Positions 35,562 through 58,838 of a stretch of DNA of 64,000 bases are shown here, piece after piece. Origin of the DNA: Thermovibrio ammonificans HB-1 (GTDB taxonomy: Bacteria > Aquificota > Aquificia > Desulfurobacteriales > Desulfurobacteriaceae). The notes below the pieces were generated by a model. It worked only from the letters and a program-made list of their open reading frames with translations. It made no database searches and was not told the DNA's origin. The stretch covers positions 264,418 through 328,417 of the forward strand of contig NC_014926.1 in NCBI RefSeq assembly GCF_000185805.1, read 5' to 3'. Numbering within the stretch: the stretch's first letter is position 1; each line of letters begins with the position of its first letter. The translations under genes and the position numbers were made by a program.

Positions 35562-35637
<76 letters not shown>

Positions 35638-35674
35638 TTTTTATTTTTCCCGCCGAAAAAACAAAAACAATAGA

Positions 35675-35761
35675 GCCCGGGTGGCGGAACTGGCAGACGC
35701 ACGGGACTTAAAATCCCGGGGCCGCAAGGCCGTGCGGGTTCGATTCCCGCCCCGGGCACCA
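35675..35761 (+). tRNA. tRNA-Leu (TAA)
   Basis: Anticodon loop CTTAAAA, a long variable arm, and the acceptor pairing GCCCGGG/CCCGGGC. Confidence 0.9.
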
Positions 35762-40246: not shown

Positions 40247-41278
40247 TTGAGGCTTGAGGAGATTTTTCAAAAAGTTCCCGTTATAGGCGAGGCTTACCTT
40301 ACCTTCAGCCAGCCCGAGAACTTCTACCTTACGGGCTTTCGCTCAACTTTTGGCGTTACGGTGGTTACCGCTAAGGGAGACGCCCTTTTCCTCACAGACG
40401 GCCGCTACTTTGAAGAGGCCAAGAAGCAGGTGAAGAACTTTAAGCTTGTTCTCTGGAAAGGTTGGGAAACCCTGAAAGAGGTGTTAAAAGGGCTCTCTTT
40501 GGAGTCTGTATCTGTTGACCCTTCAAGGCTCTCCCTTGCAAACTACCGAAAGCTTCAGGAGTTCATTCAAGTTGTGGAGGCTCCCGGCTTTATATCCCAG
40601 TTCAGGGCCAGGAAAACTCCCCGGGAAATCTCCCTCATCACAAGGGCTGTTCAGATAGCAGAGCTTTCCCTGAAAAGCGTTTTGCACCTTCTAAAACCCG
40701 GAATTACAGAGCTTGAGTTCCGCAGGGAGCTTATAAACGCCTTCTTTAAGTTCGGGGGAGAGGGAGAGGCCTTCCCCACCATAGTCGCCTCGGGTCCCGG
40801 TTCCGCAATTCCCCACTGGCAGACCTCAAACAGGGAGATAAAAGACGGCGACGTTGTAATAGTAGACTTCGGAACCGTTTACGGCGGCTACGTTTCCGAT
40901 ATTACAAGGACTTTCCTCGTAGGGAACGTTCCGTCGCAGATGAAAGAGGTTTACACCGTAGTTAAAGAGGCTCAGGAGCTCGGGGTTTCCCTTTTAAAGG
41001 CGGGGAAGGCCTGTAAAGAGATGGATTCGGCCGTTAGGGAGTTTATCGCCTCTAAAGGTTACGGGGAGTTCTTCGTCCACTCCCTCGGTCACGGAATAGG
41101 AATAGAGGTGCATGAAGCTCCCACTCTTTCTATCCGTTCAGACCAAGTCCTTCAAGAGGGAAACGTTGTTACCGTTGAGCCGGGTATCTACATCCCGGAG
41201 CTCGGCGGCGTTCGAATAGAAGACGACTGCCTTGTCACTGTTGAGGGAAGTTTCCTTATTTCACATGTCATCGTTTAA
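40247..41278 (+). CDS. M24-family Xaa-Pro aminopeptidase / prolidase
   Basis: Creatinase-type N-terminal domain plus M24 metal-ligand motifs HSLGHGIGIEVHE and VEPGIY...RIEDD. Confidence 0.8.
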   Translation: MRLEEIFQKVPVIGEAYLTFSQPENFYLTGFRSTFGVTVVTAKGDALFLTDGRYFEEAKKQVKNFKLVLWKGWETLKEVLKGLSLESVSVDPSRLSLANYRKLQEFIQVVEAPGFISQFRARKTPREISLITRAVQIAELSLKSVLHLLKPGITELEFRRELINAFFKFGGEGEAFPTIVASGPGSAIPHWQTSNREIKDGDVVIVDFGTVYGGYVSDITRTFLVGNVPSQMKEVYTVVKEAQELGVSLLKAGKACKEMDSAVREFIASKGYGEFFVHSLGHGIGIEVHEAPTLSIRSDQVLQEGNVVTVEPGIYIPELGGVRIEDDCLVTVEGSFLISHVIV

Positions 41279-42128
41279 CTACTCTGCCTAATCGGATTTT
41301 AAAATCAGTTATTTCTTTCTCTACTTTACTTCCTACGTTTAAAAAGAAGTCTGCTTCTTCTATTACAGGAGTATTCTTTCCAAATTTAAACTTGGTTAAT
41401 AAAATTATTTCTCCTTCTACTTCATATTCTTTTACCAGATTTAAATCTATAAAGTGTAAAGAAGGTGAATTTTGTGGGATTTTTTCCAGTTGCCACTCAT
41501 CCTTAGTTCTATCATCGCTGACTTCAATTACCTCGATTAGAGAGAGTTCTCCATAACCGTATCTTACATCTCCTCCAATGTAAATAGGGCGGTTTTTCAT
41601 ATTTTTAAGGTAATTTTCATGCTCTTGCTCTTTTAAATTGACGAATCCTATCCAGTGTATTTGCTCGTGTTTTTCTATAGAAAAATCTTTAAAAGGAACT
41701 TCCTGTTTGGGATTTGGTAGAATGAAGTCAAGCTCATGTAGACTTTCGTCTTTTGCTCTTCTGCTTAGTGGCTCTATCGCTGTTTGTATAATATTGTCCA
41801 CTAAGTAGAATCTAAACATGTCTTCGTAAAGACAGTTTGAGTTAATATCAAAGCAGAACATACCTTCTTTATAAGAAGGCTTTAGCAATTTTGTGCCGTT
41901 AGCATCGAAACTGGGATAGAAGTTAGTTATTTCTTCGAATAAAGAGCTTGTTTCATCTTTGTCTAATTTAGCCGCCTCATCTTTAAAAAAAATTGAAAAA
42001 TGGTTAGTTAGAGCTCCCCACATAGTTTGCCCTGGAATGAAGATTGCTGTTTCTTTTATAACACCCCACTTAAATGAACCTATATGAATAGGTTGTTCTT
42101 GTCTGAAAACCAATTTATACCAACCCAC
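41268..42128 (-). CDS. cmr3: Cas5-group RAMP, Cmr3-like
   Basis: N-terminus WYKLVFRQEQPIHIG...IFIPGQTMWGALTNHF parallels the Cmr3 consensus (h-FR-x-RPF ... IPGSTVAGAIRT). Confidence 0.55.
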   Translation of the reverse strand: MGWYKLVFRQEQPIHIGSFKWGVIKETAIFIPGQTMWGALTNHFSIFFKDEAAKLDKDETSSLFEEITNFYPSFDANGTKLLKPSYKEGMFCFDINSNCLYEDMFRFYLVDNIIQTAIEPLSRRAKDESLHELDFILPNPKQEVPFKDFSIEKHEQIHWIGFVNLKEQEHENYLKNMKNRPIYIGGDVRYGYGELSLIEVIEVSDDRTKDEWQLEKIPQNSPSLHFIDLNLVKEYEVEGEIILLTKFKFGKNTPVIEEADFFLNVGSKVEKEITDFKIRLGRVVKR

Positions 42129-42130
42129 TG

Positions 42131-42502
42131 TTAATCTCCTAAACTTTTTGCATGATATCTGGCATAGATAAGAGTCTTTTCTAAAAGTTGTTTGATGAAA
42201 AGAAGTTTATGTAGATCTTCAGATATAGATTGAAAATAATTTTCAAAACTCTCTTCTTCGCTTTTTTCTTTTACAAATTTCATTACTCTCATTAATTCGT
42301 TGAATAAAGCATGATCATTTATGTCTTTTCGAGATCTTGCCCAAACCCACATAGCATAGACACCATTGTTTGCTAAAACTCCAAGTAGTTTATTTATTTC
42401 AGTTTCTTCTAATATTCCTTCCGACACTATTTCATAAGAAATTTTACTTATTAGAGCTTCTAAACTTTCTACCTTTTGGTTAGACATCTTGATTTCCTCC
42501 AT
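42131..42502 (-). CDS. cmr5: small alpha-helical subunit, Cmr5/Cas11-like
   Basis: 123 aa and predicted all-helical. Sits in the cmr5 position between the cmr4-like and cmr3-like genes. Confidence 0.4.
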   Translation of the reverse strand: MEEIKMSNQKVESLEALISKISYEIVSEGILEETEINKLLGVLANNGVYAMWVWARSRKDINDHALFNELMRVMKFVKEKSEEESFENYFQSISEDLHKLLFIKQLLEKTLIYARYHAKSLGD

Positions 42503-43667
42503 CTGAATTGTTTTTTTTCTCTTGTAAATTTATTACTAACCTTCCAAAGCCTCTTGTTGTCATACCACCTATACCAAGGGTTTCATAAAAATGTTTGCTG
42601 TCCTCTAAAGCATTTTTTAAATCCCCTACTTCAGGAAGGGGGGTTAATTTTTCTTCAATCTCTCCAAAGCTTTTCTTATCGAAGATTCTTATATTTCCGT
42701 AAAAGATTGTGCCCCTTGGAATAGCTTCAGATGTGAATAACGCACCTTCTTTTGCCGCACCAGTGATTGGGTCTATAGAAACAGAAGTTCTAACTTCAAG
42801 GTTTGAGTTAACTATGTGCGGAAATAAATCTTCGGGAACAATGATTATATCTTTAGGTTCTAATTTAAAGCTACCAAACTCACTTATGTCGTTGGTGAGG
42901 CTTATATTATGTTTGCTAGTATCTACTTCCAAATATAACCAGCCTAGATTTAAATGAGAAATATCTTCTTCACTATTGTGAATTCTTATTTTTTTGTCTG
43001 TAGGTTTACTTTCATCAATTCCTGTCTTTCTCAGTTTTGAAGCTGTTGTTATCCATTTTGTTCCTTTTATTGTAAAAACGGGGAAAAGTATAATTTCCAA
43101 ATCACTAAAAAATAACATCCCTTGCCAGCTAATATCTTTTTTAGAAAAACCAAAACCTTTACAAACTATACAATGTCCACAGTGCCCTGTATTTTCTACT
43201 GAGTCGTTTAAATCTTCAAAATATTTATCAGGAGCTTCATCTTGCCCAGCACATTTAATTCCGATAAATCTATTCCCTTCAAATAGAATCCATTTCTTGT
43301 TATTTGAATCTTCTATGTTAAAGATTTGCTTCATAAATTCCTTTCTTTCATTGGAATCTAACGCTGACCAAATTGATTTTCCCTTTGATCTTAGGAATTC
43401 GTTCAACTTATTTTTCCTTTCAGATTTATTAATTTTGAATTTATCATTAGAAAAATATTTATGAACCTCTAAGACAACATAATATCTCCAAGTTCCGGCT
43501 AAACTGCTACCGGGAATTTTGGGAACATTTGTTATTGGGTCTCTTACAATAGTATTGTCCACCCTACCGATTGTGTATCCACCAGTTCCAATGTAAATTG
43601 GGTCGGAAGCCATTGCAAATATTTCTAATTCTTTTACTGGGTTATTATTTCCCGTCCTCTGGCTCAT
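42480..43667 (-). CDS. cmr4: Cas7-group RAMP, Cmr4-like backbone subunit with CxxC zinc knuckle
   Basis: IYIGTGGYTIGRVDNTIVRDPITNVPKIPGSSLAG matches the Cmr4/Csm3 G-loop. Also carries a C-terminal G-rich loop GIGGMTTRGFGRL and a CGHCIVC motif. Confidence 0.6.
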   Translation of the reverse strand: MSQRTGNNNPVKELEIFAMASDPIYIGTGGYTIGRVDNTIVRDPITNVPKIPGSSLAGTWRYYVVLEVHKYFSNDKFKINKSERKNKLNEFLRSKGKSIWSALDSNERKEFMKQIFNIEDSNNKKWILFEGNRFIGIKCAGQDEAPDKYFEDLNDSVENTGHCGHCIVCKGFGFSKKDISWQGMLFFSDLEIILFPVFTIKGTKWITTASKLRKTGIDESKPTDKKIRIHNSEEDISHLNLGWLYLEVDTSKHNISLTNDISEFGSFKLEPKDIIIVPEDLFPHIVNSNLEVRTSVSIDPITGAAKEGALFTSEAIPRGTIFYGNIRIFDKKSFGEIEEKLTPLPEVGDLKNALEDSKHFYETLGIGGMTTRGFGRLVINLQEKKNNSDGGNQDV

Positions 43668-43668
43668 C

Positions 43669-46600
43669 TTAAACCTCCTTTAACATTGTATGCCAGAATT
43701 CAAACATATCTATGAATAGATAAAGGTTTTTTGTGTTAGATAAAGCTTCTCTTAATTTCTCTAAATATTCCTGTGAATTTAAATTTACGTCTATGTCGAA
43801 GATTTCCTTAAAAAGTATTCTTCTGTTTATATCATGTAAGTCTAAGTATCTATAAAACATTGGAGCAAACATATAACTGTAATCTGTTCCGAAGTTTTCG
43901 TCTTCTATTTCTGGAAGCTTTGAGTATATAAACTCTACGATTTTGAATAATCGACTTCTTTGATAATTTTTCCCCGTAATTAATTTTTTGAACGCTTTAA
44001 ATTTATCCCAATATTTCTCTATCTCATAAGGTCTATTAGATTTACGCTTAATAGCTCTTTTGTATTTATTGTTTTCATCATAAAAAATATCGTTTTTTCT
44101 TGTATTCGTGTCCATGAATTCAAAATCGAAAGTGTTTGAGACTATTTCCACACTACTATTTTGAGGGAATTTGTCTATTGTGCTAATCCATTTTTTCCAA
44201 TTGTTGTTTGGTTTAATGTAAAAGTTATAATCTTTTTCATACATGTTGTTCCAATAGAGAGAGTAATACCTTTCAGTGTTGTTTATTGATTCTTCTATCG
44301 AGGCTAAAGATAATTTTTTCTTTTGATAAATACAGAATTCACTAATACATTTTGACTCATACAATTTATTTATATCTTTAACATCTCTTCTTATCCTTCT
44401 TAAAGCTTTCAAATTTACATAAGCAGGTCTTTTATAATGAGAAACCACAATTCCTATATGTAGCGGAAGTTTACCATGCACATATTTAAATTCTCTATTG
44501 TATCTTTCCATTACTCCGTCTATAAATTTCTCTAAATACTCTGCAGGGATAACAACTTGATAGCTTTTAGGTGATGGGTCAGTAATTTTAGCAAAAGGTT
44601 TATAGGAAATAAATTTGATGGCTTTTATATCGCTACTAGATATTGAAAATAGCTCATTTTTATCATTTGACCTCCTAAATTTTATACTGTGGAAATTAAA
44701 CTCTTGGAGGAAATTCCTTTCTTGCTCAATAGAGGAAAATAAGTTATTAAGTTTTTCATTTAACTTTTCAATGTTTTCTGGATTACTTTCTTTTCTAAGC
44801 TCGCCTAAAATTTCCTTAGACTTATTTCCATATTTTTTTATAAAATCTTCAATACTAGAAATTAAGTAGAATCTAACTTTATTTCCTTTAGGTTGAGCCC
44901 AATATAGAAGTCCATCTCCTTCTAATTCTTCTCCAGTGCTTTTAATTTTATTAGCAATATTTTCGTTTTCTATTTCAAAACAAATTCTTTGTTTTCTCCA
45001 TTTTGGAATATCCAAAATAGTATCCAAATTTATGTGTATATCTTCAAAAAATTCCCTCGTTGTTTCCCAAATTCTTCTAAGTCTAGCAGGTGAAGGGTTT
45101 TTTCTGAGTAAAAATTGGAGTAAGAGAATCGCTAAAAGGTCTACAGCAGGGTCGCTTTCACTAGTAAATTCTTCCCATTTTATTTTTTCATTTATCCAAT
45201 CTATCTTAGAGTTCAAAGAAGTTTCTTTTATCCAGCTTTCCCATTGTGTCCCGAGTATATTATCAAAGAATAGGCTTTCAGCATTTAAATTTCCCACTTT
45301 TTTTAATTCTTCATTTCTAGTAAAACTTAAATGTAACCAATCTTTATCTACTCTTTTTTTCTTTGAAATAATATTTTCTTTTATGCTCTCAATAAGTTGT
45401 TGACTTTTATTTTCTTCGATTTTTATGATTGTATTCAACAAATTCCCATTCAACCAATCCTCAAGCTCAAATTTTAGGGAAATATAGGCAACTCTATTAT
45501 TTTTATCTTTTACCTCATCCAGCCAGATGGTTTCACCAGAAATATTATCAATCCATTGGGAAACCTGTTTGTGATGAGTTCTATTATCACAAACTTCACA
45601 AATTGTCGGACTATTGTTTTTTTCTTTATCACTTTCGTAAATTAATCTAACCTGGCATATTGGACATATTCCAATAGCTTTTCCTTTTTTAGTTCTTAAT
45701 AGCCATAAATTCAAATCTTTCTTTCTTTTAGCTTTTAAGAAGTTATTTTTAGCATTTTCTAATAAATAAGAAAGGTTCATTAATCCTCTTGAAGCTTTAG
45801 TTAGGAAAATAGCAGGGTAAAATTCATCTTCAGTTTCTCTTTCAAAAATTTCATAAATTTTATTTTCCAGTTCTCTAAGTTCATTTTTTAATTTAGTCAT
45901 ATTTACATTTTCATCTGCTCCTAAATTATCCCCAACTATAAAATAAATTCCTGTTTCATCTCTATAAATTTCATTGCCTATTGGATACTCAACTTCTAAA
46001 AGTTTTTTAATCTCTTCATCTATTTTTTCTGTAATTTCTCTATACCACTGGATAGAAGCAAGTTTTAAACCTTTTTCTGCTAGTCCAAATTTGTCATATT
46101 GTATTCCTAAAATTCGCCATTTTACCTCTCTGATACTTTCCACTACTTTAGATGTTAAAATATAATTAGATATGAGAGCTTTAAATAAAGAAGAAGTTAC
46201 AAAAGTTTGTTGCCACAATGAGACTTCATTATTAGGAAATCTATCATCTGATATTAAATTATCTAGATATTTTTTTAATTTTATTTTTAATCCAATGCAA
46301 TTTTTGTAAATTTCATCTATTTTATTTTGATATTCTTCTTTTTTTGTATCTCCAAGAATAAAAAAGATTTTTTTTATCTCTTTAATTAATTCATCTTTAG
46401 TAAAGTCTCCTCTTGTATATTTTGAATCTTTTATAGCTCCAAATGGGTTGGATAAATTGTTAATTTTTTCTGATTTTATATTTGCTTTTTCAAACTGACT
46501 ATTTGTTATTTCGCTAAGGTTATAGTAGATTTTTAATAAATTATCCCATTTATTCCTCCAATTTTTTAAAAAATCTTTATATAAATAAAATCTTTCACCT

Positions 46601-46773
46601 AGTATATGAACATCTATACTAAACAAATTTTCTAACTCTAAGTCCATATCTTCTTGTTTATTCAAACCAACTACTTTTTCCCATAAAGCAAATAAACTTC
46701 CTATTTCAGCTTTTAAAATTTCACCTCTGTATTGTTCTAATCTATTTAAATCTAATCCTGACATCTTTCCCAC
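43669..46773 (-). CDS. cas10: large subunit, Cas10/Cmr2-like, with no detectable HD or GGDD catalytic motifs
   Basis: 1034 aa. Sits in the operon position of cas10. Has a treble-clef Zn finger CPICQ...CEVC at about residue 370. No HD dyad near the N-terminus and no GGDD/GGDE anywhere. Confidence 0.45.
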   Translation of the reverse strand: MGKMSGLDLNRLEQYRGEILKAEIGSLFALWEKVVGLNKQEDMDLELENLFSIDVHILGERFYLYKDFLKNWRNKWDNLLKIYYNLSEITNSQFEKANIKSEKINNLSNPFGAIKDSKYTRGDFTKDELIKEIKKIFFILGDTKKEEYQNKIDEIYKNCIGLKIKLKKYLDNLISDDRFPNNEVSLWQQTFVTSSLFKALISNYILTSKVVESIREVKWRILGIQYDKFGLAEKGLKLASIQWYREITEKIDEEIKKLLEVEYPIGNEIYRDETGIYFIVGDNLGADENVNMTKLKNELRELENKIYEIFERETEDEFYPAIFLTKASRGLMNLSYLLENAKNNFLKAKRKKDLNLWLLRTKKGKAIGICPICQVRLIYESDKEKNNSPTICEVCDNRTHHKQVSQWIDNISGETIWLDEVKDKNNRVAYISLKFELEDWLNGNLLNTIIKIEENKSQQLIESIKENIISKKKRVDKDWLHLSFTRNEELKKVGNLNAESLFFDNILGTQWESWIKETSLNSKIDWINEKIKWEEFTSESDPAVDLLAILLLQFLLRKNPSPARLRRIWETTREFFEDIHINLDTILDIPKWRKQRICFEIENENIANKIKSTGEELEGDGLLYWAQPKGNKVRFYLISSIEDFIKKYGNKSKEILGELRKESNPENIEKLNEKLNNLFSSIEQERNFLQEFNFHSIKFRRSNDKNELFSISSSDIKAIKFISYKPFAKITDPSPKSYQVVIPAEYLEKFIDGVMERYNREFKYVHGKLPLHIGIVVSHYKRPAYVNLKALRRIRRDVKDINKLYESKCISEFCIYQKKKLSLASIEESINNTERYYSLYWNNMYEKDYNFYIKPNNNWKKWISTIDKFPQNSSVEIVSNTFDFEFMDTNTRKNDIFYDENNKYKRAIKRKSNRPYEIEKYWDKFKAFKKLITGKNYQRSRLFKIVEFIYSKLPEIEDENFGTDYSYMFAPMFYRYLDLHDINRRILFKEIFDIDVNLNSQEYLEKLREALSNTKNLYLFIDMFEFWHTMLKEV

Positions 46774-47918
46774 CCTTTGTTCTTTGGTTTTTCGGGTAAT
46801 TCTATATTTTTATCTAAACAAATCTTCTTTTCTGATTCTAAAATTTCAAACCTTCCCCAGCCTAATTTTGTTTTAGCTCCAACTCCTTTGTTTGCTAAAA
46901 CTTTTAAAGCTTCAATTAAGTTGCCTAAATCTTTCTGGATTTCCTCTCTTAACTCTTCATCTGTTTTCAAAATCCCGTCAAAAGGAATATAAATTAATTG
47001 GAAAATTCCTTCTGTTCCTGCTGGGACTACTTCGTAATGAATTGGATTTTTTCCGGCTCTTTTTCTTCTATCGTGAGGATTGATTATTTCAAGAGAAAGT
47101 TCATCAAAATAGGTTGGATAAAATATGGCTCTTCCTTTGTGAGTTTGGAATTCTAAAGAAAGATAAGAATAGGAGTTTTTGTATTTTTCCCATACTTTGA
47201 CAGCAAGTAAGTTACTAATATCTTTATAGTTTTGTGCGTTATTTACATTTTCTATTAGTTCCTGATTTATTTCCAATCCTAACTCAAACAGAACAAATTT
47301 TAGAAACTCTTCTTTATATTTTTGTAAATTTTCATGTTCATTCCTTTTGAGTTTATTTTTTAGATACTCCTCCAATGTTTTTATACTTTCTGAACCTGCT
47401 CCGAATATTCTTAGAAAACTTTCTATAGCTTTTCGACTGTTTTCTAAAGTATTAGCTTTATTTATTAATTCTCTAAACGCATGGGCTAAAGCTCCTTTCC
47501 AGGCAGAGCCTCTAATCATTGGAACTTTGAAATTTGTTTCTTTTAAAATAGGGTTTTGAATTATATAAAATTCATCATCATCTTTTGAAAAATAAGGAGC
47601 TTTGAGTTTAAATTTAAACCAAATTGCAAAGGAATATTTAGGAAGTTTTTCTACATAGCTTTGTAGATTTGATAAGTTATTGTTTTCATCATTTTCAAAA
47701 ATGCCCGAAATCCGTTTTATTTGTTGATTATTACCAATCTCATATTTTTTATTTTTTCTATTCTTAATAGAACCTTTATGATTTTCTAACTCTTTAGTTT
47801 TATTCTTCACATAACCAAATTTTAACCTAATAAAACTTTTAAATGAATTTTCTGTTTTTCTGAAAATTTCTCCGCTATTTTCCTTATATTCAACATAAAC
47901 TTCAAATTTAGCCATCAC
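46752..47918 (-). CDS. cmr6: Cas7-group RAMP, Cmr6-like
   Basis: MIRGSAWKGALAHAF (an IPGSS-KGALR-type motif) and a C-terminal G-rich loop GVGAKTKLGWGRFEI. Roughly 130-aa Lys/Asn-rich N-terminal extension. Confidence 0.55.
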   Translation of the reverse strand: MMAKFEVYVEYKENSGEIFRKTENSFKSFIRLKFGYVKNKTKELENHKGSIKNRKNKKYEIGNNQQIKRISGIFENDENNNLSNLQSYVEKLPKYSFAIWFKFKLKAPYFSKDDDEFYIIQNPILKETNFKVPMIRGSAWKGALAHAFRELINKANTLENSRKAIESFLRIFGAGSESIKTLEEYLKNKLKRNEHENLQKYKEEFLKFVLFELGLEINQELIENVNNAQNYKDISNLLAVKVWEKYKNSYSYLSLEFQTHKGRAIFYPTYFDELSLEIINPHDRRKRAGKNPIHYEVVPAGTEGIFQLIYIPFDGILKTDEELREEIQKDLGNLIEALKVLANKGVGAKTKLGWGRFEILESEKKICLDKNIELPEKPKNKGWERCQD

Positions 47919-49170
47919 TTTTACCTTCCAAATTTAGTAATCCGGCAATAGATAAAAATCCTGCTTTCAGTTGTTTATTTTCTTTATGTATAAATGGAAG
48001 TATTTTTGAACCTTCTCCTCGCTCGCCCAATAATTTGTGCCTGAATTTTTTCCATTGCATAATATCTTCACATTTATAGCTTTTACCTTTACATTCTATC
48101 TCTTTATTTTTTTGAAATTCTTTCCTATTATTAAAACATTCATTTTCAAATTTACTTTTATTATTTTGTTCTTTTTCTTCACAAATATGTCTTAAGCAAT
48201 CTCTTATATCTAATTTCTTTTTAAGGAGATATTTTATATTTTCATAGATATTACTACTATCGCTATTTTCTGAGAGTCTAAAAATAATAAATCTTTCAGG
48301 TATATTTTTTATATTTTCTTTAAAAACTTCCTCTTTTTTACAATTAAATTGAAAATTTTTCTTATTTATATATAAGATTGAAGAATGAGGAGAAGAATTT
48401 AAACCAATTTCACAAGATAACACTAGTTCTTTCCAAGAAAAATGAGTTTTGGAAAAATGAGTTTTGTCAAATAATTCAAAATCAGTTTTTCTCCAGTTGT
48501 TAATAGGATTATTATTGTTATTTTCTTTTACTTCCAAAACTTCTAACCTCCCATATCCTATATTCCACTTCCCACCCCAAAAGCCGTATTTATCCATAAA
48601 AGTTAAAAGTGGATAGAAAATTAGTTCTATAATTTCTTCCTCTACTTCAAAGATAACTTCAAAGTTCCCATAAAAGTATGGTTTAGCGAAATAAAAAACT
48701 GACCATGTCTTGTTAGACCTTTGGGGGCAATCTCCGTTTTCTTTAATTTCATAATTTACCTTATTTAAGCATATTCTATTTGGTAAATTGAGTTTATCCC
48801 CGAAACAGTAACCGCTTGAGTATTTAATCTCCTTTATTTCTATCAAACTTTTCCAATTTGTTGTCCCAAAGATAATTGAGGGATAAGGTATATCTTGTTC
48901 TAATAAACATTTAATTTTATCTTTAAAAGAATTCCCTTTGTTAGCCAAGCAATTTTTAAAATCTTTTCTATTTACTTCTTTTTCAAACCTACCTAATTTG
49001 GGGCTAAAGTGTTTTCTTTTACAAATCCCACTAAAATAACAAATAACTTCGAACCAAAATCTTAAACTTCCAATTAAAGAAGAAGGTCGTATTTCACAAT
49101 TTTCCCGCCAGGCATCGCCCGTCCATAAGGGAGTTATTGTGTTAAATTTTACAGCTATCTCCTTTTTCAC
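47908..49170 (-). CDS. cmr1: Cas7-group RAMP, Cmr1-like
   Basis: N-terminal ITPLWTGDAW...IRPSSLIGSLRFWFEVI matches the Cmr1/Cmr6 hallmark. Also has the G-rich loop YGFWGGKWNIGYGRLEV. GTG start. Cys- and Lys-rich C-terminal third. Confidence 0.55.
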   Translation of the reverse strand: MKKEIAVKFNTITPLWTGDAWRENCEIRPSSLIGSLRFWFEVICYFSGICKRKHFSPKLGRFEKEVNRKDFKNCLANKGNSFKDKIKCLLEQDIPYPSIIFGTTNWKSLIEIKEIKYSSGYCFGDKLNLPNRICLNKVNYEIKENGDCPQRSNKTWSVFYFAKPYFYGNFEVIFEVEEEIIELIFYPLLTFMDKYGFWGGKWNIGYGRLEVLEVKENNNNNPINNWRKTDFELFDKTHFSKTHFSWKELVLSCEIGLNSSPHSSILYINKKNFQFNCKKEEVFKENIKNIPERFIIFRLSENSDSSNIYENIKYLLKKKLDIRDCLRHICEEKEQNNKSKFENECFNNRKEFQKNKEIECKGKSYKCEDIMQWKKFRHKLLGERGEGSKILPFIHKENKQLKAGFLSIAGLLNLEGKSDG

Positions 49171-49225
49171 CCATCCCTCAGGTTATGGATTTTTTGGGTC
49201 AAAAGTTTTATTTAGGATATCATAA

Positions 49226-50359
<1,134 letters not shown>

Positions 50360-50360
50360 G

Positions 50361-50651
50361 TCAGTCGATTGGTGAGAATATAACCTTGTTAACGAGGATT
50401 TCTCCCCGTTTTGTTCTCACTACGAGGAACCCTTTTAGCCCTTCGTGGTTTGCGATTTTTTTCAGTAGCTTCCCGATTTCCTTAAAGCACTCTTCCTTCT
50501 CTCTGCACTTTAGCACGGCGTCGAGCACTATAACTTCGCCTCTTTTCAGGTAGACTTCAACTTCCCCCTTCTCTTTCAGGGCTTTCCAGAACTCGGAGCT
50601 GTTGACTTTTATCCTCTTTTGAACTTCCCTCTCGATGATTTTTACGGTCAC
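50361..50651 (-). CDS. hypothetical small protein
   Basis: 96-aa ORF with no recognisable motif. Confidence 0.3.
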
Positions 50652-50738
50652 GGCTGCCCCCTCTGGGCGTGGTTTCCCGAAATGAATAGAATTTACTCAA
50701 CAGTTTGTAGAAACCAATTTTACCAGCAGGAGGAAGGT

Positions 50739-51242
50739 ATGTCGGAAGTTCTCAAGGGAAGGGCTTTTAAGTTCGGAGACGACGTTAATACCGACGAGAT
50801 AATACCGGCCCGTTACCTTAACACTTCGGACCCTAAGGAGCTTGCAAAGCACGTTATGGAGGACGCAGACCCCGAGTTTCCCAAAAAGGTTCAGCCCGGG
50901 GATATTATCGTTGCCGGTAAGAACTTCGGCTGCGGCTCTTCGAGGGAGCACGCTCCCATAGCCATTAAGGCGGCCGGTGTTTCTGCGGTTATAGCCAAGT
51001 CTTTCGCGAGGATTTTCTACAGGAACGCAATCAACATCGGCCTTCCGATTTTTGAGTCTCCCGAGGCTGTTGAGGGGATTGAAGAGGGTGATGTTGTTGA
51101 AATCAACCCAGAAACCGGAGTGATAAGGAATTTGACTAAGGGGACCGAGTTTAAGGCCACCCCGATTCCCGAGGATATAAGGAAGATTATGGAGGCCGGC
51201 GGCCTTATGGAATACGCCAAGCAGAAGTTGGGATTAAAGTAG
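50739..51242 (+). CDS. leuD: 3-isopropylmalate dehydratase small subunit
   Basis: [23 protein letters not shown]... is a short-form LeuD. AGGAGGAAGG RBS. The upstream part of the ORF-track ORF is rejected. Confidence 0.85.
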
Positions 51243-51253
51243 GAGGTGAGAAG

Positions 51254-52333
51254 GTGCGTAAGTTCAAGATTGCAGTTCTGCCCGGTGATGGTATAGGTCC
51301 GGAGATTGTAAAGCAGGCCGTAAAGGTTATGGAGGCTGCTGCCGAGAAGTTCGGTTTCGGCCTTGAGCTCAACTACGGCCTCATCGGCGGCGCCGCGATA
51401 GACGAAACCGGCGTTCCTTTCCCCGAGGAGACAAAGGAGCTCATTCTGTCGTCTGACGCGGTTCTCCTCGGAGCCGTTGGAGGGCCCAAGTGGGATAACC
51501 TCCCCTTTGAGATAAGGCCCGAGAGGGCGCTTTTGGGGATGAGGAAGCTCCTTAACGCCTTCGCCAACCTGCGCCCCGCAAGGCTCTACGATGAGCTCAT
51601 AGACGCTTCCACTTTAAAGCCCGAGGTTGTAAGGGGCGTAGACATTATGGTTATAAGGGAGCTGACGAGCGGCATTTACTTTGGTATCCCGAAGGGGATA
51701 TTCGTAGACGGCGACGAGAGGGTGGGAATCAACACCCTTCGCTACTACGAGCACGAAGTTGAGAGAATCGCGAAGGTTGCCTTTGAGGTTGCCCGCAAGA
51801 GGAATAAGAAGGTAACGAGCGTAGATAAGGCGAACGTTTTGGAGGCTACCGTTCTGTGGCGGGAGGTTGTTGAGAGGGTTCACGAGAACTACCCCGACGT
51901 TGAGCTTCAACACATGTACGTAGACAACGCCGCAATGCAGATTATCAGGTGGCCCAAGCAGTTCGACGTAATAGTAACCACCAACATGTTCGGCGACATC
52001 CTCTCCGATGCCTGTGCAATGCTTACTGGCTCTTTGGGAATGCTCCCCTCTGCCTCTATCGGCGGCAAGATAGGGCTTTACGAGCCGATTCACGGCTCCG
52101 CCCCGGATATTGCCGGTCAGAATATCGCCAACCCGATAGCCACCATAAACTCTGCCGGTATGATGTTCACCTACTCCTTTGATATGCCGGAAGTTGAGGA
52201 GGCGATAGATAAAGCGGTTAGAGCAGTTCTGGCAAAAGGTTACAGGACGAGGGATATCTACTCCGAGGGAACGAAGCTCGTTTCCACCGAGGAGATGGGA
52301 GACCTTATAGCAGAAGAACTTAAGAACCTTTAA
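51254..52333 (+). CDS. leuB: 3-isopropylmalate dehydrogenase
   Basis: N-terminus [15 protein letters not shown] and the NMFGDILSD motif. Confidence 0.9.
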
Positions 52334-52344
52334 AGGGGTGAGCT

Positions 52345-53361
52345 ATGAAAGGTTACACCGTTGCCGTTGTAGGTGCCACGGGAGCAGTCGGGCAGGAGAT
52401 GCTGAAGATACTCGAGGAGAGGGACTTTCCCGTTGCAAAGCTGAAAGCCCTTGCCTCTGCCCGCTCTGCCGGCAAAAAGGTGAAGTTTAAGGGAGAAGAG
52501 GTTACCGTTGAGGAGCTTCGCCCCGAAAGCTTTGAAGGCGTAGATATCGCCCTCTTCTCCGCCGGCGGCGACAGGAGCAGGCAGTTTGCCCCCGAGGCGG
52601 TAAAGCGGGGAGCAGTGGTTATAGACAACAGCTCCGCCTTCAGGATGGAGCCCGACGTTCCCCTGGTTGTTCCCGAAGTTAACCCCGAAGACGTTGAGTG
52701 GCATAAGGGGATAATTGCCAACCCCAACTGCTCCACCATACAGATGGTTGTTGTCTTAAAGCCCCTTCACGACCTTGCAAAAATAAAACGGGTTGTTGTT
52801 GCAACCTACCAGGCTGTTTCCGGGGCCGGCGCTCAGGCTATAGAGGAGCTTAAGGAACAAACGAAGGCCGTTCTTGAGGGAAGGCCCGTTCCTCCGGCCA
52901 ACAAGATACCCCGCCAGATAGCCTTCAACTGCGTTCCCCACATAGACAAGTTCTTCGACGACGGCTACACCCGGGAAGAGCACAAGATGATTAACGAGAC
53001 CAAAAAAATTATGCACGACGACTCCATAAAGGTTTCCCCCACCTGCGTTAGGGTTCCGGTTTTCGTGGGTCACTCAGAGGTTGTGAACATCGAGTTTGAG
53101 AAGCCCATAACAGTTGAGCAGGCGAGGGAGGCCCTCGAGAGAGCTCCCGGCGTTGAGGTGGTTGACGACTTTAAAAACCACATTTACCCCACCCCCATAG
53201 ACGTTGCGGGCAAGGACCCTGTGCTTGTGGGCAGAATCAGGCGAGATGATACAATAGAAAACGGCCTCAACCTGTGGATTGTCGGCGATAACCTTAGGAA
53301 AGGCGCGGCCCTCAACGCCGTTCAGATTGCGGAACTCCTCGTTGAAAAGGGGCTCGTTTAA
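52345..53361 (+). CDS. asd: aspartate-semialdehyde dehydrogenase
   Basis: NAD(P)-binding motif VAVVGATGAVGQ and the active-site sequence NPNCSTI. Confidence 0.9.
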   Translation: MKGYTVAVVGATGAVGQEMLKILEERDFPVAKLKALASARSAGKKVKFKGEEVTVEELRPESFEGVDIALFSAGGDRSRQFAPEAVKRGAVVIDNSSAFRMEPDVPLVVPEVNPEDVEWHKGIIANPNCSTIQMVVVLKPLHDLAKIKRVVVATYQAVSGAGAQAIEELKEQTKAVLEGRPVPPANKIPRQIAFNCVPHIDKFFDDGYTREEHKMINETKKIMHDDSIKVSPTCVRVPVFVGHSEVVNIEFEKPITVEQAREALERAPGVEVVDDFKNHIYPTPIDVAGKDPVLVGRIRRDDTIENGLNLWIVGDNLRKGAALNAVQIAELLVEKGLV

Positions 53362-53373
53362 GGGGGAACTTCG

Positions 53374-53733
53374 ATGGAAGAGCTTTTAAAGCAACTTTTA
53401 AGTGAAAACCCTGAGCTTCAAGCCCTCCTCGTTGTAGACGAGGAGGGTATAGTTGTTTACAAGGAGAGCCGGGAAGGGCTGCCGTTCGACCCGGAGGAAG
53501 CGGCCGTAGAGCTCATCACGCCCAGCACCAGAATAGACGAGTTCCTTCACGACTCCCTGGAAGAGGAAAAGGGGCTCGAGGAGTTTATAGTCTTCTCGAG
53601 GCGTTACCTCTTCCTCGTTTATAAACTGGTGAACGAGACCTTCCTCGTTGCCGTCTCCTCCAGAACGCCCCTTTACGGCCGCCTGAGGTTCAGGCTCAGG
53701 TCTAAATTAAAAGAGGTGATAAAACAGCTGTAG
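53374..53733 (+). CDS. Roadblock/LC7 (MglB-like) domain protein
   Basis: 119 aa with the pattern ALLVVDEEGIVVYKESREG, typical of Roadblock/LC7 proteins. Confidence 0.55.
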   Translation: MEELLKQLLSENPELQALLVVDEEGIVVYKESREGLPFDPEEAAVELITPSTRIDEFLHDSLEEEKGLEEFIVFSRRYLFLVYKLVNETFLVAVSSRTPLYGRLRFRLRSKLKEVIKQL

Positions 53734-53746
53734 CAGGAGGGGAGAG

Positions 53747-54439
53747 ATGGCGAAGCTCTGGTACCTGGGCCACTCCACTTTCTACCTGGAAGGTGAAGGC
53801 GTTAAGGCCCTTATAGACCCGTTTTTAAGCGGGAACCCGTGGAAGATAGCATCTCCGGAGGACTTTACAGACCTCAACTACATCTTCGTAACTCACGGCC
53901 ACGGCGACCACTTGGGAGACGCCGTAGAGATTGCAAAAAGAACAGGCGCCACCGTTGTCAGCATCTTCGAGGTGTGCCAGTACTGCAACCTCAAAGGGGT
54001 TAACAACATTCACGCAATGCACATAGGGGGCTCTTACAACTTCCCCTTCGGGAGGGTGAAGCTCGTTCCCGCCGCCCACGGCTCCTCGGTTATAGAGAAC
54101 GACCAGGTTATTACCCTCGGAACTCCCTGCGGAATCCTTATAGAGGTAGAGGGTAAAACCGTTTACCACGCCGGAGACACCGGCCTTATAGCCGATATGG
54201 AGCTTCTGGGCCGCTACGAAGATATCCACATCGCCCTCCTTCCGATAGGCGGCAACTTCACAATGGATGTGAGGGATGCGGCCATTGCCGCCGAAATGGT
54301 TAAGCCCAAACTGGCCGTTCCCATGCACTTTAAGACCTGGCCCATAATAGAGGCCGAACCCGAAGAGTTTAAAGCTCTTGCAGAGGCAAGGGGCGTTCCC
54401 GTAGAGGTTCTACAACCCGGTGATACCTTAGAGTTCTAA
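53747..54439 (+). CDS. MBL-fold metal-dependent hydrolase (UPF0173-like)
   Basis: Metal-binding motif VTHGHGDHLGD and downstream HAGDTG. Confidence 0.8.
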   Translation: MAKLWYLGHSTFYLEGEGVKALIDPFLSGNPWKIASPEDFTDLNYIFVTHGHGDHLGDAVEIAKRTGATVVSIFEVCQYCNLKGVNNIHAMHIGGSYNFPFGRVKLVPAAHGSSVIENDQVITLGTPCGILIEVEGKTVYHAGDTGLIADMELLGRYEDIHIALLPIGGNFTMDVRDAAIAAEMVKPKLAVPMHFKTWPIIEAEPEEFKALAEARGVPVEVLQPGDTLEF

Positions 54440-55188
54440 TGCGGATTGGTGCTACTCTCTCGGGCGGCTTCGTGAAAGGGGTCGCCCACATCGGATTCCT
54501 TGAAGCGCTGGAGTATAAAGGTATCCCCCCTTCTTTCGTTGCCGGTTCAAGTGCAGGGGCGCTTGTAGGCGCCCTTTACTCTTTCGGACTCTCCACGAAA
54601 AAAATCTTAGAAATAGCCAAAGGTTTGTCCTGGAAAGACCTTGCAAGGCCTTCCCTGAAAGGGGGGCTTTTCAAGCTCGAGGGGCTCTACTCCATTTTGA
54701 AGGAAATCGTTGGCGATGCCCGTATAGAAGAGCTTCCCCTCCCTTTCGGCCTTGCGGTTGTAAACTTGAGAACCCTAAAAGTGGAATTTAAACGGGAGGG
54801 CCCTCTTGCAGACCTGGTTGTGGCCTCCTGCTCGGTTCCCCCTCTTTTCTCTCCTTGGAAAGTAGGCAGCGACTACTACGCCGACGGCGGCCTCAGAAAC
54901 TGCCTTCCCGCCGAAATGGCTAAGGCCGCCGGCGTTGAGTTAAACGTTTGTTGCAGCGTTAACGGCTACACCTACGCCTTTAACCCCAACTCCCTCCTCG
55001 ACGTTGCCGTTAGGGCTTCCCTTGCCACCGTAATAGAGAACCAGGAAACCCGTGAGCGCTACTGTGATATCATTGTGAACCTTTCACTTGAAGGTAACCC
55101 CTTGAGCTTCGATATGGTAGAGCTCTTTTACAGAACCGGCTACGATGAAACCTTAAAAAAACTTGAAGGAGGGGTGCCTTGGCTGTAA
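54439..55188 (+). CDS. patatin-like phospholipase
   Basis: Oxyanion hole GGFVKG, nucleophile GSSAG and catalytic DGG. Confidence 0.8.
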
Positions 55189-55457
55189 AGGCCATTCACG
55201 CTTTCGTCTCGGGCAGGGTTCAGGGGGTAGGCTACAGGGCCTTTACCCGCAAGGTTGCAAGAGAGCTCGGGCTTGTGGGTTTCGTTCGCAACCTGCCCGA
55301 CGGCAGAGTTGAAGTTTACGCGGAAGGGGAGGAGGAGAAGCTGCAGGAGCTCCTTCGGCACCTTAAGAAGGGGCCATATTTTGCGAGGGTAGACTCTATA
55401 GAGGTTACCACCACGGAGCCAAGAGGTGGCTATGAGGAGTTTGTTATTACTTATTAG
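55179..55457 (+). CDS. acyP: acylphosphatase
   Basis: Acylphosphatase signatures [11 protein letters not shown] and [13 protein letters not shown]. Confidence 0.8.
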
Positions 55458-56484
55458 CCTGCTGTTTGCTTGCAATGCGGCTTTGGGAGAGGTTATCTAC
55501 CGGGTAAAGAGGGGAGATTCCCTCGGCAAAATAGCCCAGAAGTTCCACGTAACCGTAAGGGAGCTTAAAAGGGCCAACCGCCTTAAGGGGAATACCATAT
55601 ACGTGGGGCAGAAGCTCGTAATCCCCGTTAAATCTAACGGCCGTTTAAAAAGGGAGAAGAGCGCTACCAGAACCGTTTACAGAATTTATCGGGTAAAGCG
55701 GGGCGATACGCTGGGGAAAATCGCTGCCCGCTTTCACACAACCGTAAGGGAGCTTAAAAAGATTAACCGCCTCAGGAGTAACCGTATATACGTAGGGCAA
55801 AGGTTAAAGGTTCCCGTTAGAGTAAAAGTTGCTTCTGCATCCTCTTCTAAAGCCGCCACTTCGGCCGGAATCGTAAGAAAGGGAGGCGCCGTTTTCGTTC
55901 CCGAAGGGCTCACAAAGGTGCCGATATACAAGTATTACAGGGTTAAACGGGGCGATTCCGTTTTAAAAATTGCCAAAAAGCTCCACGTGTCGCCCCGAAT
56001 GATAATAAGACTCAACCACCTTAAAAGACCTTACATACTCAGGCCCGGCCAGAGGTTGAAGATACTCGTAGGCTACAAAGACGTTCTCAAACTAAACAGA
56101 CCCATAGCCTTCCGCTTCCCCCTCGACGGCCGCGTAGACCCAACCGTTAGAGAGAAGGGATACCCCGGTATATTCATACTCAGCCCTCCCGGGGCTCCTG
56201 TAAAGGCCGCCGAAACGGGAATAGTGAAGTTTGCAGGAGAAGACAGTAAGCTCCTTAAAGCCTACGGTAAAATGGTTATCATTCAGCACCCCGAAGGTTA
56301 CAGAACGGTTTACGCAAACTTAGGCTCCATAGACGTAAAGCCCAATCAACTTGTGAAAAGGGGTCAGGTTATAGGCACTGCCGGCACCTCGGGAGTTTGG
56401 GGAAGGAGCGGCATCTACTTCGATATCAGTAAAGTTTACAGGGGGAAAACCTACCACATCAATCCGTTAGAAGTTTTAAAGTGA
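55432..56484 (+). CDS. LysM-repeat / M23 peptidoglycan metalloendopeptidase
   Basis: Signal peptide, four LysM repeats ([13 protein letters not shown]...), and a C-terminal M23 domain. Confidence 0.85.
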
Positions 56485-56791
56485 TTGGCAGGCTTGGCCA
56501 GAACCCCTTTTGAACCTTTCGGCAGGCCCCGTTCGGCTTACGGCCGTAGAGTTTCTCTCTGCACTTGTGGTTTGAGCTTGTTCTAAAAGGAGATTTTAAA
56601 AGATTTGCTGCATTCCATCATAAAATCTTCAGAACCAGACTTTTTCATAGGGCCACAAGGTTTTCAGACTTTATATTAGATTATCATCATAAGCTTAATG
56701 GAGGTTCGCTGCACTTGACCCCCTTTTCACGCTGTTCTAATTTTGAGATAGCAGAAGCGGCTCTTTAACTTTCCGAATACGGCAAATGTGG

Positions 56792-57331
56792 GTTTGAAAT
56801 GCCCTATAAGGGATTGTGACGTCAGGTGGTTGTAGAGGACGTAGTGGCCGTTGACGGGTTTGAAATGCCCTATAAGGGATTGTGACTTCGAGAACCATCT
56901 GGTTAACCCTCTGAGGAGTTACGTTTGAAATGCCCTATAAGGGATTGTGACACGCTTTCGAGGGCCGAAATCAGCTTCCCTGCTGCGGTTTGAAATGCCC
57001 TATAAGGGATTGTGACCAAGGGTGAGAGTCTGGGGCGTGTCGTTCATTACCGGGTTTGAAATGCCCTATAAGGGATTGTGACTTTTTACGAATAAGTTTT
57101 TCAAACCTGTGAGAAGCAAAGTTTGAAATGCCCTATAAGGGATTGTGACCCTCGTCTGGCCGACGGGCGGCGGTTGATTAGGTTCAGGTTTGAAATGCCC
57201 TATAAGGGATTGCGACGAGTAATCGTAGTCGTAGCGGACCACGGCACCCTATAAGGGATTGTGCCTTGCTTTTTCACGAACTCGGAGTAGGCCTTCTTAA
57301 CGGTTTGAAACGCCCTACAAGGGATTACATC
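56792..57331 (+). CRISPR. CRISPR array: nine repeats (two terminal degenerate), eight spacers; no adjacent cas genes
   Basis: 29-nt repeat GTTTGAAATGCCCTATAAGGGATTGTGAC at 56792, 56858, 56923, 56988, 57054, 57121 and 57188 (the last with one mismatch), with 36-38-nt unique spacers. Decayed copies at 57245-57265 and 57303-57331. An AT-rich leader-like stretch lies upstream at 56560-56790. Confidence 0.9.
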
Positions 57332-57395
57332 GGGCGGCTGTGGTGAGTGGAATAGCAGGGCTTTCCCTGAGCTCGGTTTTAATGGTTGCTTAAGC

Positions 57396-58838
57396 CTACT
57401 CTTTCCAGAAGGAGGGGAGCAGCAGGGTCAGAACAGACATTACCTCGAGCCTTCCTAAAACCATCTCTATGGAAAGGAGCAGTTTGTCTATCGGTGAGAA
57501 AAAGGCAAAGTTCCCTGCCGGCCCTACTTTTTCGAGCCCGGGGCCCGAGCCGGTTATACAGGCAACCGATGCCGAAAACGAGGTGATTATGTCGTGGCCG
57601 GAAAGGGAAATTAGGAACCCGAACAGCAGGGTTGTAGAGAAGAATATCGAGATAAACGCCCATATGTTGTTCATCAGCGAGTAGTCTACAACTTTCTTCC
57701 CGAGGACTATCCTGTAAACCATTCGCGGGTGAAGGGTTTTCTTCATCTCGTAGTAGGTGGTTTTTGCCATTGTTACTATTCTGAACTGCTTTAACCCTCC
57801 GGCTGTAGAGCCCGAGCTTCCCCCCATAATCTCAAGCAGCATCATTAAGGCCTGTGTAACCGGCGGCCACTTGGTGTAGTCGGCTACGCCAAAGCCTGTT
57901 GTTGTTATTGCAGATATAACTGCAAAGGAGCCGAACCTCAGGGCCTCAAGTAGCGAGTGGTAGGTCCCCTTAAAGTATAGAACCAAAGTGGTAAACGCTA
58001 CGGCAAAAGCAACTATGGCCATAAAGGAGCGGAACTCGTAATAGGAGTAAATCGCTTTCAGCGAGCGGTTTTTAAGGGCCAGGTAGTAGGTGAGCAGGTT
58101 TGTGGCTCCTGCCAGCATGAAAAAGGAAACAATCACCTCTATAAGGGGGGAGTGGTATTCACCTATACTGCCGTTTTTCGTTGAGAACCCTCCCGTTGCT
58201 ATTGTTGCAAAGGCGTGGTTAACTGCGTCGTAAAGGGGCATACCGGCCGCAACAAGGGCTATCACCTCTGCCGCCGTTAGAGCCACGTAAACGGCGAGAA
58301 TCACCCTTGCCATCTCTTTAACTTTGGGAACGAGCCGCTCCTCTACCGCTTTCGACGCCTCGAACCGCATCAGTTGGGCTCCTCCCGCTCCGAAGGCCGG
58401 CAGAACCGAAAGGGAGAAGACAACGAACCCTACGCCCCCTATCCAGTGGGTTGTTGAGCGCCACAGTAGAACGCTCTTTGGTAGCGCCTCTATGTTTGTG
58501 AGAATAGAGGCTCCCGTGGTTGTAAAACCGGAAACCGATTCAAAGTAGGCGTCTATAAAGTTTTTTATTGCTCCGGTCTCCTGGTAGACAAGTGCCGATA
58601 TCGCCGGGAACAGAAACCAGGTAAGGCTGACTGTAAGCAGGGCCTCTTTTATGTTCAGCTCCCCACCCTCTATCTGCAGGGCTATCAGGAACAGCGCCCC
58701 CGTAAGGGCTACGGGGTATAAGTAGTAGTGGAACAGGCCGTCTTTACACCAGAGGGAGTAGAAGAAGGGGATAAAGTAGGAGAGGCTCAGGAAAAAGAGT
58801 AAAGTGGCAACGTATTTGAATACCAGCTGAAACCTCAT
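57396..58838 (-). CDS. trkH: Trk-type potassium uptake protein TrkH
   Basis: 480-aa polytopic membrane protein of the TrkH/KtrB family. Confidence 0.85.
   Translation of the reverse strand: MRFQLVFKYVATLLFFLSLSYFIPFFYSLWCKDGLFHYYLYPVALTGALFLIALQIEGGELNIKEALLTVSLTWFLFPAISALVYQETGAIKNFIDAYFESVSGFTTTGASILTNIEALPKSVLLWRSTTHWIGGVGFVVFSLSVLPAFGAGGAQLMRFEASKAVEERLVPKVKEMARVILAVYVALTAAEVIALVAAGMPLYDAVNHAFATIATGGFSTKNGSIGEYHSPLIEVIVSFFMLAGATNLLTYYLALKNRSLKAIYSYYEFRSFMAIVAFAVAFTTLVLYFKGTYHSLLEALRFGSFAVISAITTTGFGVADYTKWPPVTQALMMLLEIMGGSSGSTAGGLKQFRIVTMAKTTYYEMKKTLHPRMVYRIVLGKKVVDYSLMNNIWAFISIFFSTTLLFGFLISLSGHDIITSFSASVACITGSGPGLEKVGPAGNFAFFSPIDKLLLSIEMVLGRLEVMSVLTLLLPSFWKE

Follow-up and report, generated by a model that had tools for sequence, protein, structure and literature searches.

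How a CRISPR array that lies among housekeeping genes, away from any cas gene, might be processed, and which effector it might guide, is the question raised by a locus of Thermovibrio ammonificans HB-1. The array occupies 56792-57331 of the stretch of 64 kilobases (kb) analysed here, referred to as the window, and the cas gene closest to it, cmr1, begins at 49170, at a distance of 7.6 kb, within a low-GC island that encodes a type III-C effector. On balance, the array is probably functional and cas-remote, belongs to a family of ~30-nucleotide (nt) repeats usually served by a type I-B Cas6, and guides the III-C effector in trans.

The repeat search revealed seven intact 29-nt repeats and two decayed terminal copies, as stated in the original prediction, which had been made from the sequence of this DNA. 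The intact repeats start at 56792, 56858, 56923, 56988, 57054, 57121 and 57188, each with at most one mismatch to GTTTGAAATGCCCTATAAGGGATTGTGAC; with up to three mismatches allowed, seven copies were found against 0.00 expected in 100 dinucleotide-preserving shuffles. The six leader-proximal repeats were 100% mutually identical and carried GTGAC at the 3′ end, and a T26C change in repeat 7 gave ...GCGAC. The spacers, all of them unique, measured 37, 36, 36, 37, 38 and 38 nt in order, followed by ~30 nt for the cut-down S7 and 37 nt for the last one. At repeat 8 the start-to-start spacing fell to 49 nt, against the usual 66-67, and this repeat, whole in the related strains L001 and L005 (GTTTGAAATGCCCTATAAGGGATTGCGCC), was reduced to CCCTATAAGGGATTGTGCC in HB-1, indicating a deletion of ~17 nt that removed the end of S7 and the start of repeat 8 in this strain. 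The terminal repeat showed six mismatches to GTTTGAAATGCCCTATAAGGGATTGTGAC. The locus therefore presents what defines a CRISPR array, namely at least three direct repeats, 23-50 nt long and nearly identical, with unique spacers of even length in between. Neither a second array nor stray repeat-like elements were detected elsewhere in the window. A non-CRISPR tandem repeat was ruled out, as Tandem Repeats Finder was silent at the array coordinates and the spacers were unique.

In terms of G+C content (GC), the spacers averaged 53% (range 29-66%), not the 55-60% previously given for most of them, and thus resembled the T. ammonificans host and not an AT-rich donor. The host-like composition once attributed to the entire array consequently held for the spacers only, the repeat having 41% GC against 53% for the host. 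The array as a whole (48% GC) did differ from the island (29% GC), as had been noticed, and the separate acquisition of the two that was drawn from this difference is plausible rather than demonstrated.

The orientation of the array was deduced from repeat decay at its high-coordinate end, the comparison of strains, a polymorphism at repeat position 26 and leader homology, which together placed the leader at 56485-56791 and the CRISPR RNA (crRNA) on the plus strand, in support of the low-side leader and plus-strand transcription originally predicted. Look-ups of the exact TrkH and LysM peptidase proteins led to independent assemblies, all of whose contigs break at the first repeat or within the array; L001-L006 sampled the array itself, among them the two sister-strain contigs L001 (GCA_054012175.1) and L005. 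The L001 flank was 99.2% identical to the window, and S8 with the terminal repeat were the only array parts common to these sister strains and HB-1, the upstream spacers being different; S8 and the terminal repeat were present in every sampled strain, from L001 to L006. This difference in spacer content between strains with 99.2% identical flanks indicates very recent spacer turnover. Compared with window positions 57083-57331, the metagenomic variant L004 (JGI 3300048635) lacked spacer 6 and one repeat. Position 26 was T in the six leader-proximal HB-1 repeats and C in repeat 7, in the intact repeat 8 of L001 and L005 and in the remaining sister-strain repeats, and T in the truncated repeat 8 of HB-1, a gradient that would fit serial copying of a mutated first repeat during spacer acquisition.

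The leader was identical in the independent assemblies L012 and L016. Its TTGACC box occupies 56715-56720, and CTCTTTAAC...GAATACGG forms a motif 10-31 nt upstream of repeat 1. The leaders of Sulfurihydrogenibium azorense and of the L141 and L229 arrays lying after cas2 also have a TTGA box and a GAATA-G motif, a suggestive likeness. No leader promoter emerged from a sigma-70 consensus scan, and alignment with the related leaders weakly suggests one. With an AT-rich leader, a degenerate far-end repeat and leader-end turnover between strains all found at this locus, there is hardly room for doubt that 56792-57331 is a real, active CRISPR array with its leader on the low side and plus-strand crRNAs.

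The repeat itself offers clues to its processing. Folding prediction revealed a CCCU-AUA-AGGG hairpin of four base pairs (bp) at repeat positions 11-21, ending exactly 8 nt before the repeat 3′ end. Contrary to the little internal palindrome initially ascribed to it, the repeat thus has a 4-bp G+C stem placed exactly where Cas6 would leave an 8-nt tag. A hairpin followed by an 8-nt tag is the geometry of Cas6 substrates that give an 8-nt 5′ tag, which would predict cleavage at this point, in line with the assignment of the repeat to the Cas6-processed class 1 types. The tag is encoded as ATTGTGAC in the newer repeats and as ATTGCGAC in the older repeats and in the sister strain, and both forms agree at six of the eight positions with the family norm of ATTGAAA(C/G) type. 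The older form, AUUGCGAC in RNA, is the crRNA handle of the type III complexes of Thermus thermophilus (PMC8157118).

By its sequence, the HB-1 repeat is best described as a divergent member of the ~30-nt "...CCTAT(A/G)AGGGATTGAAAC" family, which flanks I-B cas6-cas1-cas2 cassettes and is found beside I-B and III-C genes in S. azorense and one other genome; the same family has been typed as I-B in Weizmannia coagulans (PMC8954581). Among the matches listed, the nearest repeats, 30 nt long and of I-B type, agreed with it at 24-25 of the 29 positions, and an Aquificales metagenome-assembled genome carried GTTTTTATGTCCCTATAAGGGTTTGAAAC. The hairpin followed by ATTGNNAC was found in more than 100 arrays among the genome matches listed, mostly with 37-nt cyanobacterial repeats, and at these loci cas6 lay near the array in at least 11 and cas1-cas2 in 16. 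A second pattern recovered at least 120 metagenomic arrays with 30-nt repeats, such as GTTTGTAGCGTACCTATAAGGGATTGAAAC; among the 31 metagenomic family loci with at least 3 kb of non-array flank, I-B genes (cas1b, cas2, cas3, cas5, cas7, cas6) were recognisable at 12 and III-C genes at none. The repeat classification that had been proposed as a check thus yielded an I-B-type family, and the Rfam CRISPR-DR families remained below their gathering threshold, the best being CRISPR-DR36 with 13.5 bits of the 38 needed. A degenerate form of the repeat (GTTTGAAANNCCCNNNNNGGGATTGNGAC) had no match in the genome and metagenome contig collections, where the HB-1 source was probably masked, so this result is not firm as to other HB-1 arrays, although, were the window alone masked, HB-1 would have no second array of this repeat; the repeat likewise had no match in a plasmid collection that does not include the T. 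ammonificans plasmid under NC_014917 or CP002445.

The candidate user of these crRNAs is encoded at 41268-49170, where GC is 29% against 53% for the rest of the window. This island is a complete, horizontally acquired type III-C effector operon, a more precise identity than the "Cmr-like" one first given to it. The full cmr1-cmr6-cas10-cmr4-cmr5-cmr3 set was present, contiguous and with overlapping genes (E values from 1e-39 to 1e-147), cas1 and cas2 being absent from it, and the gene order agreed with that of the III-C loci L019, L141 and L142. The island Cas10 was 100% identical over 1031 amino acids (aa) to the NCBI-named Csx11 family protein of T. ammonificans HB-1. Motif scans found no GGDD/GGDE cyclase motif in it or in 10 other inspected family members, in keeping with a Csx11-type Cas10, whose cyclase domain is inactivated; the N-terminal HD motif, which some relatives such as P0011 (Persephonella atlantica) retain, was likewise absent from it, and a CxxC...CxxC zinc-finger-like motif spans residues 367-392. 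A survey of III-C loci described them as lacking cyclase sites and as carrying an HD domain in only half of the cases (PMC11229360). In Cmr4, the N-terminal GTGGYTIGRVDN motif, with its GRVDN loop, looks like the catalytic-Asp motif, a tentative residue assignment. In Cmr complexes, the crRNA 5′ tag is bound by Cmr3, as established by structural work on them. At the protein level, the published proteome of cells in nitrate-reducing growth included Theam_0342 (Csx11) and Theam_0344 (Cmr1) at very low abundance (normalized spectral abundance factor ~0.00%), and the same table listed no other CRISPR-annotated proteins (PMC5441870, Figure 3-source data 1).

The island lies between pepP and tgt, and integrase, tRNA, flanking repeats, array, cas6, cas1 and cas2 were all absent from the site. 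Its GC borders are very sharp (41268-41278 and 49171-49225): the cmr3 stop region overlaps the pepP 3′ end by 11 nt, and cmr1 lies 55 nt from the longest tgt open reading frame (ORF), at 49226, and 88 nt from the called tgt start, at 49259. Compared with window positions 47541-55863, the sister contig L265 (ENA ERZ27262685) was 98.8% identical from the LysM gene to position 48782 inside cmr1; past this point only patches of 84-91% identity were left, and its cmr1 encodes 375 aa against 420. The same pepP-tgt site thus holds a diverged III-C allele in the sister strain, with the recombination breakpoint falling inside cmr1, which suggests allelic replacement. Another foreign defence islet lies 3.4 kb away from the III-C island and consists of a GmrSD-family (type IV restriction) gene at 35923-37833 on the minus strand, with 32% GC (Pfam GmrSD_N, E=1.5e-26; PADLOC HEC-05/PDC-M55), directly downstream of tRNA-Phe and tRNA-Leu (35562-35761).

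The organization of related loci bears on whether this effector uses the array. In Persephonella sp. IF05-L8 (L019) the III-C operon stands alone, with no cas6 or array attached, and in S. azorense (L142) it follows I-B genes, cas1, cas2, an array with the repeat GTTTTTAGAGTGCCTATGAGGAATTGAAAC and cas6. Similarly, GCA_017880035.1 (L141) carries cas3, cas4, cas1, cas2 and an array with GTTTTAAGCCTACCTATGAGGGATTGAAAC, then the III-C operon and a second array. Since III-C genes lie beside arrays of the same family in both L141 and L142, the III-C effectors of this clade presumably use the crRNAs of that repeat family. The compatibility of array and effector put forward in the original prediction is strengthened by these two genomes, and the use of the 56792-57331 array by the island III-C is made plausible by analogy; the chances that it does so are judged to be even or slightly better. 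No strain was found with the array and without the island, or the reverse, the tgt look-up having given island-carrying contigs only.

In such a scheme, a plus-strand precursor crRNA would be transcribed from the AT-rich leader, each repeat would form the CCCU/AGGG hairpin, and a Cas6 endoribonuclease encoded outside the window would cut at the 3′ base of the hairpin, yielding crRNAs whose 8-nt 5′ tag reads AUUGUGAC, or AUUGCGAC in the older units. A Cas1-Cas2 module, likewise encoded outside the window, would insert new spacers next to the leader. The crRNAs would then be loaded in trans into a Cmr1-Cmr6-Cas10(Csx11)-Cmr4-Cmr5-Cmr3 complex. Because its Cas10 is devoid of cyclase and HD motifs, cleavage of complementary transcripts by Cmr4 is the sole activity proposed for this complex, and interference would involve neither cyclic-oligoadenylate signalling nor DNA cleavage. 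The same crRNAs may also serve a type I system encoded elsewhere in the genome.

Several observations weigh against the guidance of the III-C effector by this array. In the tag ATTGTGAC, two positions depart from ATTGAAAC, the form carried by 216 of the 220 sampled family arrays, and the donor of the island was probably AT-rich and used ATTGAAAC, so crRNA compatibility is not assured. Pfam and PADLOC applied to all large ORFs of the window detected no cas6, cas1, cas2 or cas3; outside the effector island, the large ORFs were housekeeping genes, with the sole addition of the low-GC GmrSD restriction gene. The flanks of the array were confirmed to be a LysM/M23 peptidase gene and trkH, with no cas gene within 7 kb. 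The L001 contig showed no cas genes in the ~6 kb past the high end of the window either, and linked cas6 and cas1-cas2 were thus found neither in the 64 kb nor in that extension. A query with the S. azorense Cas6 gave no T. ammonificans protein among the best 120 matches, which reached down to 39% identity, and the same was observed with the L141 Cas1b (best 120 matches, down to 59% identity). The spacers pointed to no target: all ten that were searched had no match in the phage collection and no significant match in the plasmid collection (one 24-nt chance match, E=0.1), six 22-23-mer spacer cores had none among viral contigs, in which vent viruses are poorly sampled, and with up to nine mismatches allowed no self-match was found in the window and fetched loci, so that the search for viral, plasmid or self targets suggested at the outset yielded none. 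Finally, no other candidate crRNA source exists in the window, as had been claimed, but the genome has further CRISPR arrays that could serve the III-C complex instead: the HB-1 genome paper reported several CRISPRs, the largest beside rRNA operon 2, in a genome of 52.1% GC (PMC5441870). T. ammonificans has also been listed, in a comparison of Aquificales, among the species with CRISPR clusters and associated cas genes (PMC4227106).

Some of these points would also be accommodated if the array were simply a detached part of a type I system, probably I-B, whose cas6-cas1-cas2 genes lie elsewhere in the HB-1 chromosome, and if the III-C complex used another array or none, the 7.6-kb proximity being coincidental. 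Although unlikely, this is the most substantial of the alternatives. The repeat family is overwhelmingly tied to I-B adaptation and interference genes, the flanked metagenomic family loci show no III-C genes beside their arrays, island and array differ in GC, the HB-1 genome has other and larger CRISPRs, and the HB-1 tag is unlike the ATTGAAAC of III-C-adjacent arrays. Nevertheless, the best-match searches with a Cas1b and a Cas6 of that family brought up no close T. ammonificans protein, III-C operons have no cas6 or arrays of their own and typically borrow crRNAs, and in L141 and L142 the III-C and I-B systems share one family array, both uses being compatible.

It is improbable that the array is an unprocessed and unused relic in decay, for whose repeat the cas6, cas1 and cas2 genes were lost or never present. 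This would be in keeping with the absence of cas genes near the array and of cas6, cas1 and cas2 from the whole window, with the internal deletion that harms one spacer-repeat unit, with the lack of spacer targets in the phage, plasmid and viral-contig collections and with the outcome of the Cas6 and Cas1b queries. However, the six leader-proximal repeats are identical, spacer content has turned over very recently between near-identical strains, the leader is kept across assemblies, and the orphan arrays of Anabaena, with a related hairpin-and-tag repeat type, are processed by a remote Cas6. About as doubtful is the possibility that HB-1 is devoid of any Cas6 and that a housekeeping RNase, or else the III-C complex, matures the crRNAs with the atypical AUUGUGAC tag, which would guide a minimal III-C without cyclase or HD activity; if true, this would be an RNA-cleavage-only type III system, possibly regulatory instead of defensive. 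RNase E matures the crRNAs of the III-Bv system of Synechocystis. Very improbable, finally, is the arrival of array and island as one mobile CRISPR-Cas locus that was parted later by rearrangement, for although the III-C operons of relatives abut same-family arrays with homologous leader motifs and the repeat is more AT-rich than the host, seven housekeeping genes of host-like GC (tgt, leuD, leuB, asd and others) lie between the two in the same order in independent assemblies, the island is sharply bordered at 29% GC, the spacers are host-like in GC, and the tag departs from the ATTGAAAC seen in III-C-adjacent arrays.

The array was already part of a genome that had been published and catalogued, and there is ample documentation both of cas-remote arrays and of III-C modules without an array (PMC11229360; bioRxiv 10.1101/2020.04.14.041012), so the finding is an ordinary one and current understanding is not overturned. 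Its practical value lies in annotation: a cas-less array of a published extremophile genome can be tied to a known I-B-type repeat family and to a III-C operon as its plausible user, which is expressed, was acquired horizontally and lacks cas6, cas1, cas2, cyclase and HD. Type III-C is among the less-studied type III subtypes, and a host that can be cultured, has one compact III-C operon and a small array and shows natural spacer variation between strains could be a simple model for crRNA borrowing and for what III-C effectors do without signalling or DNase activity.

Coordinates of the array, its leader and flanks, and the III-C effector genes in the window
Feature	Position	Strand	Basis or remark
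CRISPR array	56792-57331	+	Seven 29-nt repeats GTTTGAAATGCCCTATAAGGGATTGTGAC, one 5′-truncated, one degenerate terminal; spacers 36-38 nt
Seven intact 29-nt repeats with spacers S1-S6	56792-57216	+	Repeat search, spacing
Spacers S1-S6	56821-56857, 56887-56922, 56952-56987, 57017-57053, 57083-57120, 57150-57187	+	
Truncated S7 (57217-57246) joined to the 3′ 19 nt of repeat 8, CCCTATAAGGGATTGTGCC (57247-57265)	57217-57265	+	Spacing 49 nt; L001/L005 comparison
Oldest spacer S8 (57266-57302) and degenerate terminal repeat GTTTGAAACGCCCTACAAGGGATTACATC (57303-57331)	57266-57331	+	Common to L001-L006
Leader	56485-56791	+	44% GC, 38.5% over 56560-56790; strain and leader comparisons
Terminator-like hairpin and T-run	57358-57384	+	Between array and convergent trkH; weak, 2 sites against 1.4 expected
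cmr1 (RAMP), first operon gene	47908-49170	-	PADLOC Cmr1 E=2.9e-147; Pfam RAMPs; Theam_0344
cmr6 (RAMP)	46752-47915	-	PADLOC Cmr6 E=2.5e-95
cas10, Csx11 / III-C type, 1031 aa	43669-46764	-	PADLOC Cas10c E=7.2e-122; Theam_0342
cmr4 (Cas7 backbone)	42480-43667	-	PADLOC Cmr4 E=1.4e-39
cmr5 (small subunit)	42131-42487	-	PADLOC Cmr5 (III-C) E=5e-45
cmr3 (Cas5-like subunit)	41268-42128	-	PADLOC Cmr3 E=1.1e-75
LysM/M23 peptidase gene	55432-56484	+	Pfam, exact-protein look-up; flank, outside the system
trkH	57396-58838	-	Pfam; flank, outside the system

Elsewhere in the window, a 236-aa ankyrin-repeat protein, unusual in bacteria, is encoded at 11880-12590 on the plus strand, directly downstream of mfd, and the 99-nt periodicity of its DNA shows as direct repeats. 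The 5′ part of a tmRNA gene lies at 1-133 on the minus strand, where it is cut by the window edge.

Among known systems, the I-B-type 30-nt repeats (GTTT...ACCTAT(A/G)AGG(G/A)ATTGAAAC), found in S. azorense Az-Fu1 and Weizmannia coagulans, resemble the HB-1 array in their 29-30-nt class, in having spacers of 36-38 nt and in a repeat that opens with GTTT and has a small hairpin immediately upstream of its 8-nt ATTGxxAC tag; some members also share the leader motifs. The HB-1 repeat differs from them in its 29 nt, in a CCC stem instead of (A/T)CC and in the tag ATTGTGAC/ATTGCGAC instead of ATTGAAAC, and its array has no adjacent cas6-cas4-cas1-cas2. In this last respect it is closer to the orphan arrays of Anabaena sp. 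PCC 7120 (Reimann et al. 2020, bioRxiv 10.1101/2020.04.14.041012), which are cas-free, lie among housekeeping genes and depend for their function on a remotely encoded Cas6; the sampled cyanobacterial repeats also end in a hairpin and an ATTGxxAC 3′ end, whereas they are 37 nt long and of I-D/III-D type, and processing has been followed experimentally there, the HB-1 array being known from its sequence.

With regard to the effector, the III-C (Csx11/MTH326-like) crRNA borrowers of Methanosarcina mazei and S. azorense (I-B and III-C) have the same cmr1-cmr6-cas10-cmr4-cmr5-cmr3 gene order, a Cas10 without the cyclase motif and no cas1 or cas2. The HB-1 module stands apart from them as an isolated low-GC insertion of 7.9 kb to which, as in Persephonella L019, neither cas6 nor an array is attached, and by the absence of the HD motif. 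The Thermus repeat is 36 nt long. T. thermophilus is another organism, with other Cas10 families, and the crRNAs of its III-A and III-B complexes nonetheless carry a 5′ handle, AUUGCGAC, identical to the tag of the older HB-1 repeats and of the sister strain.

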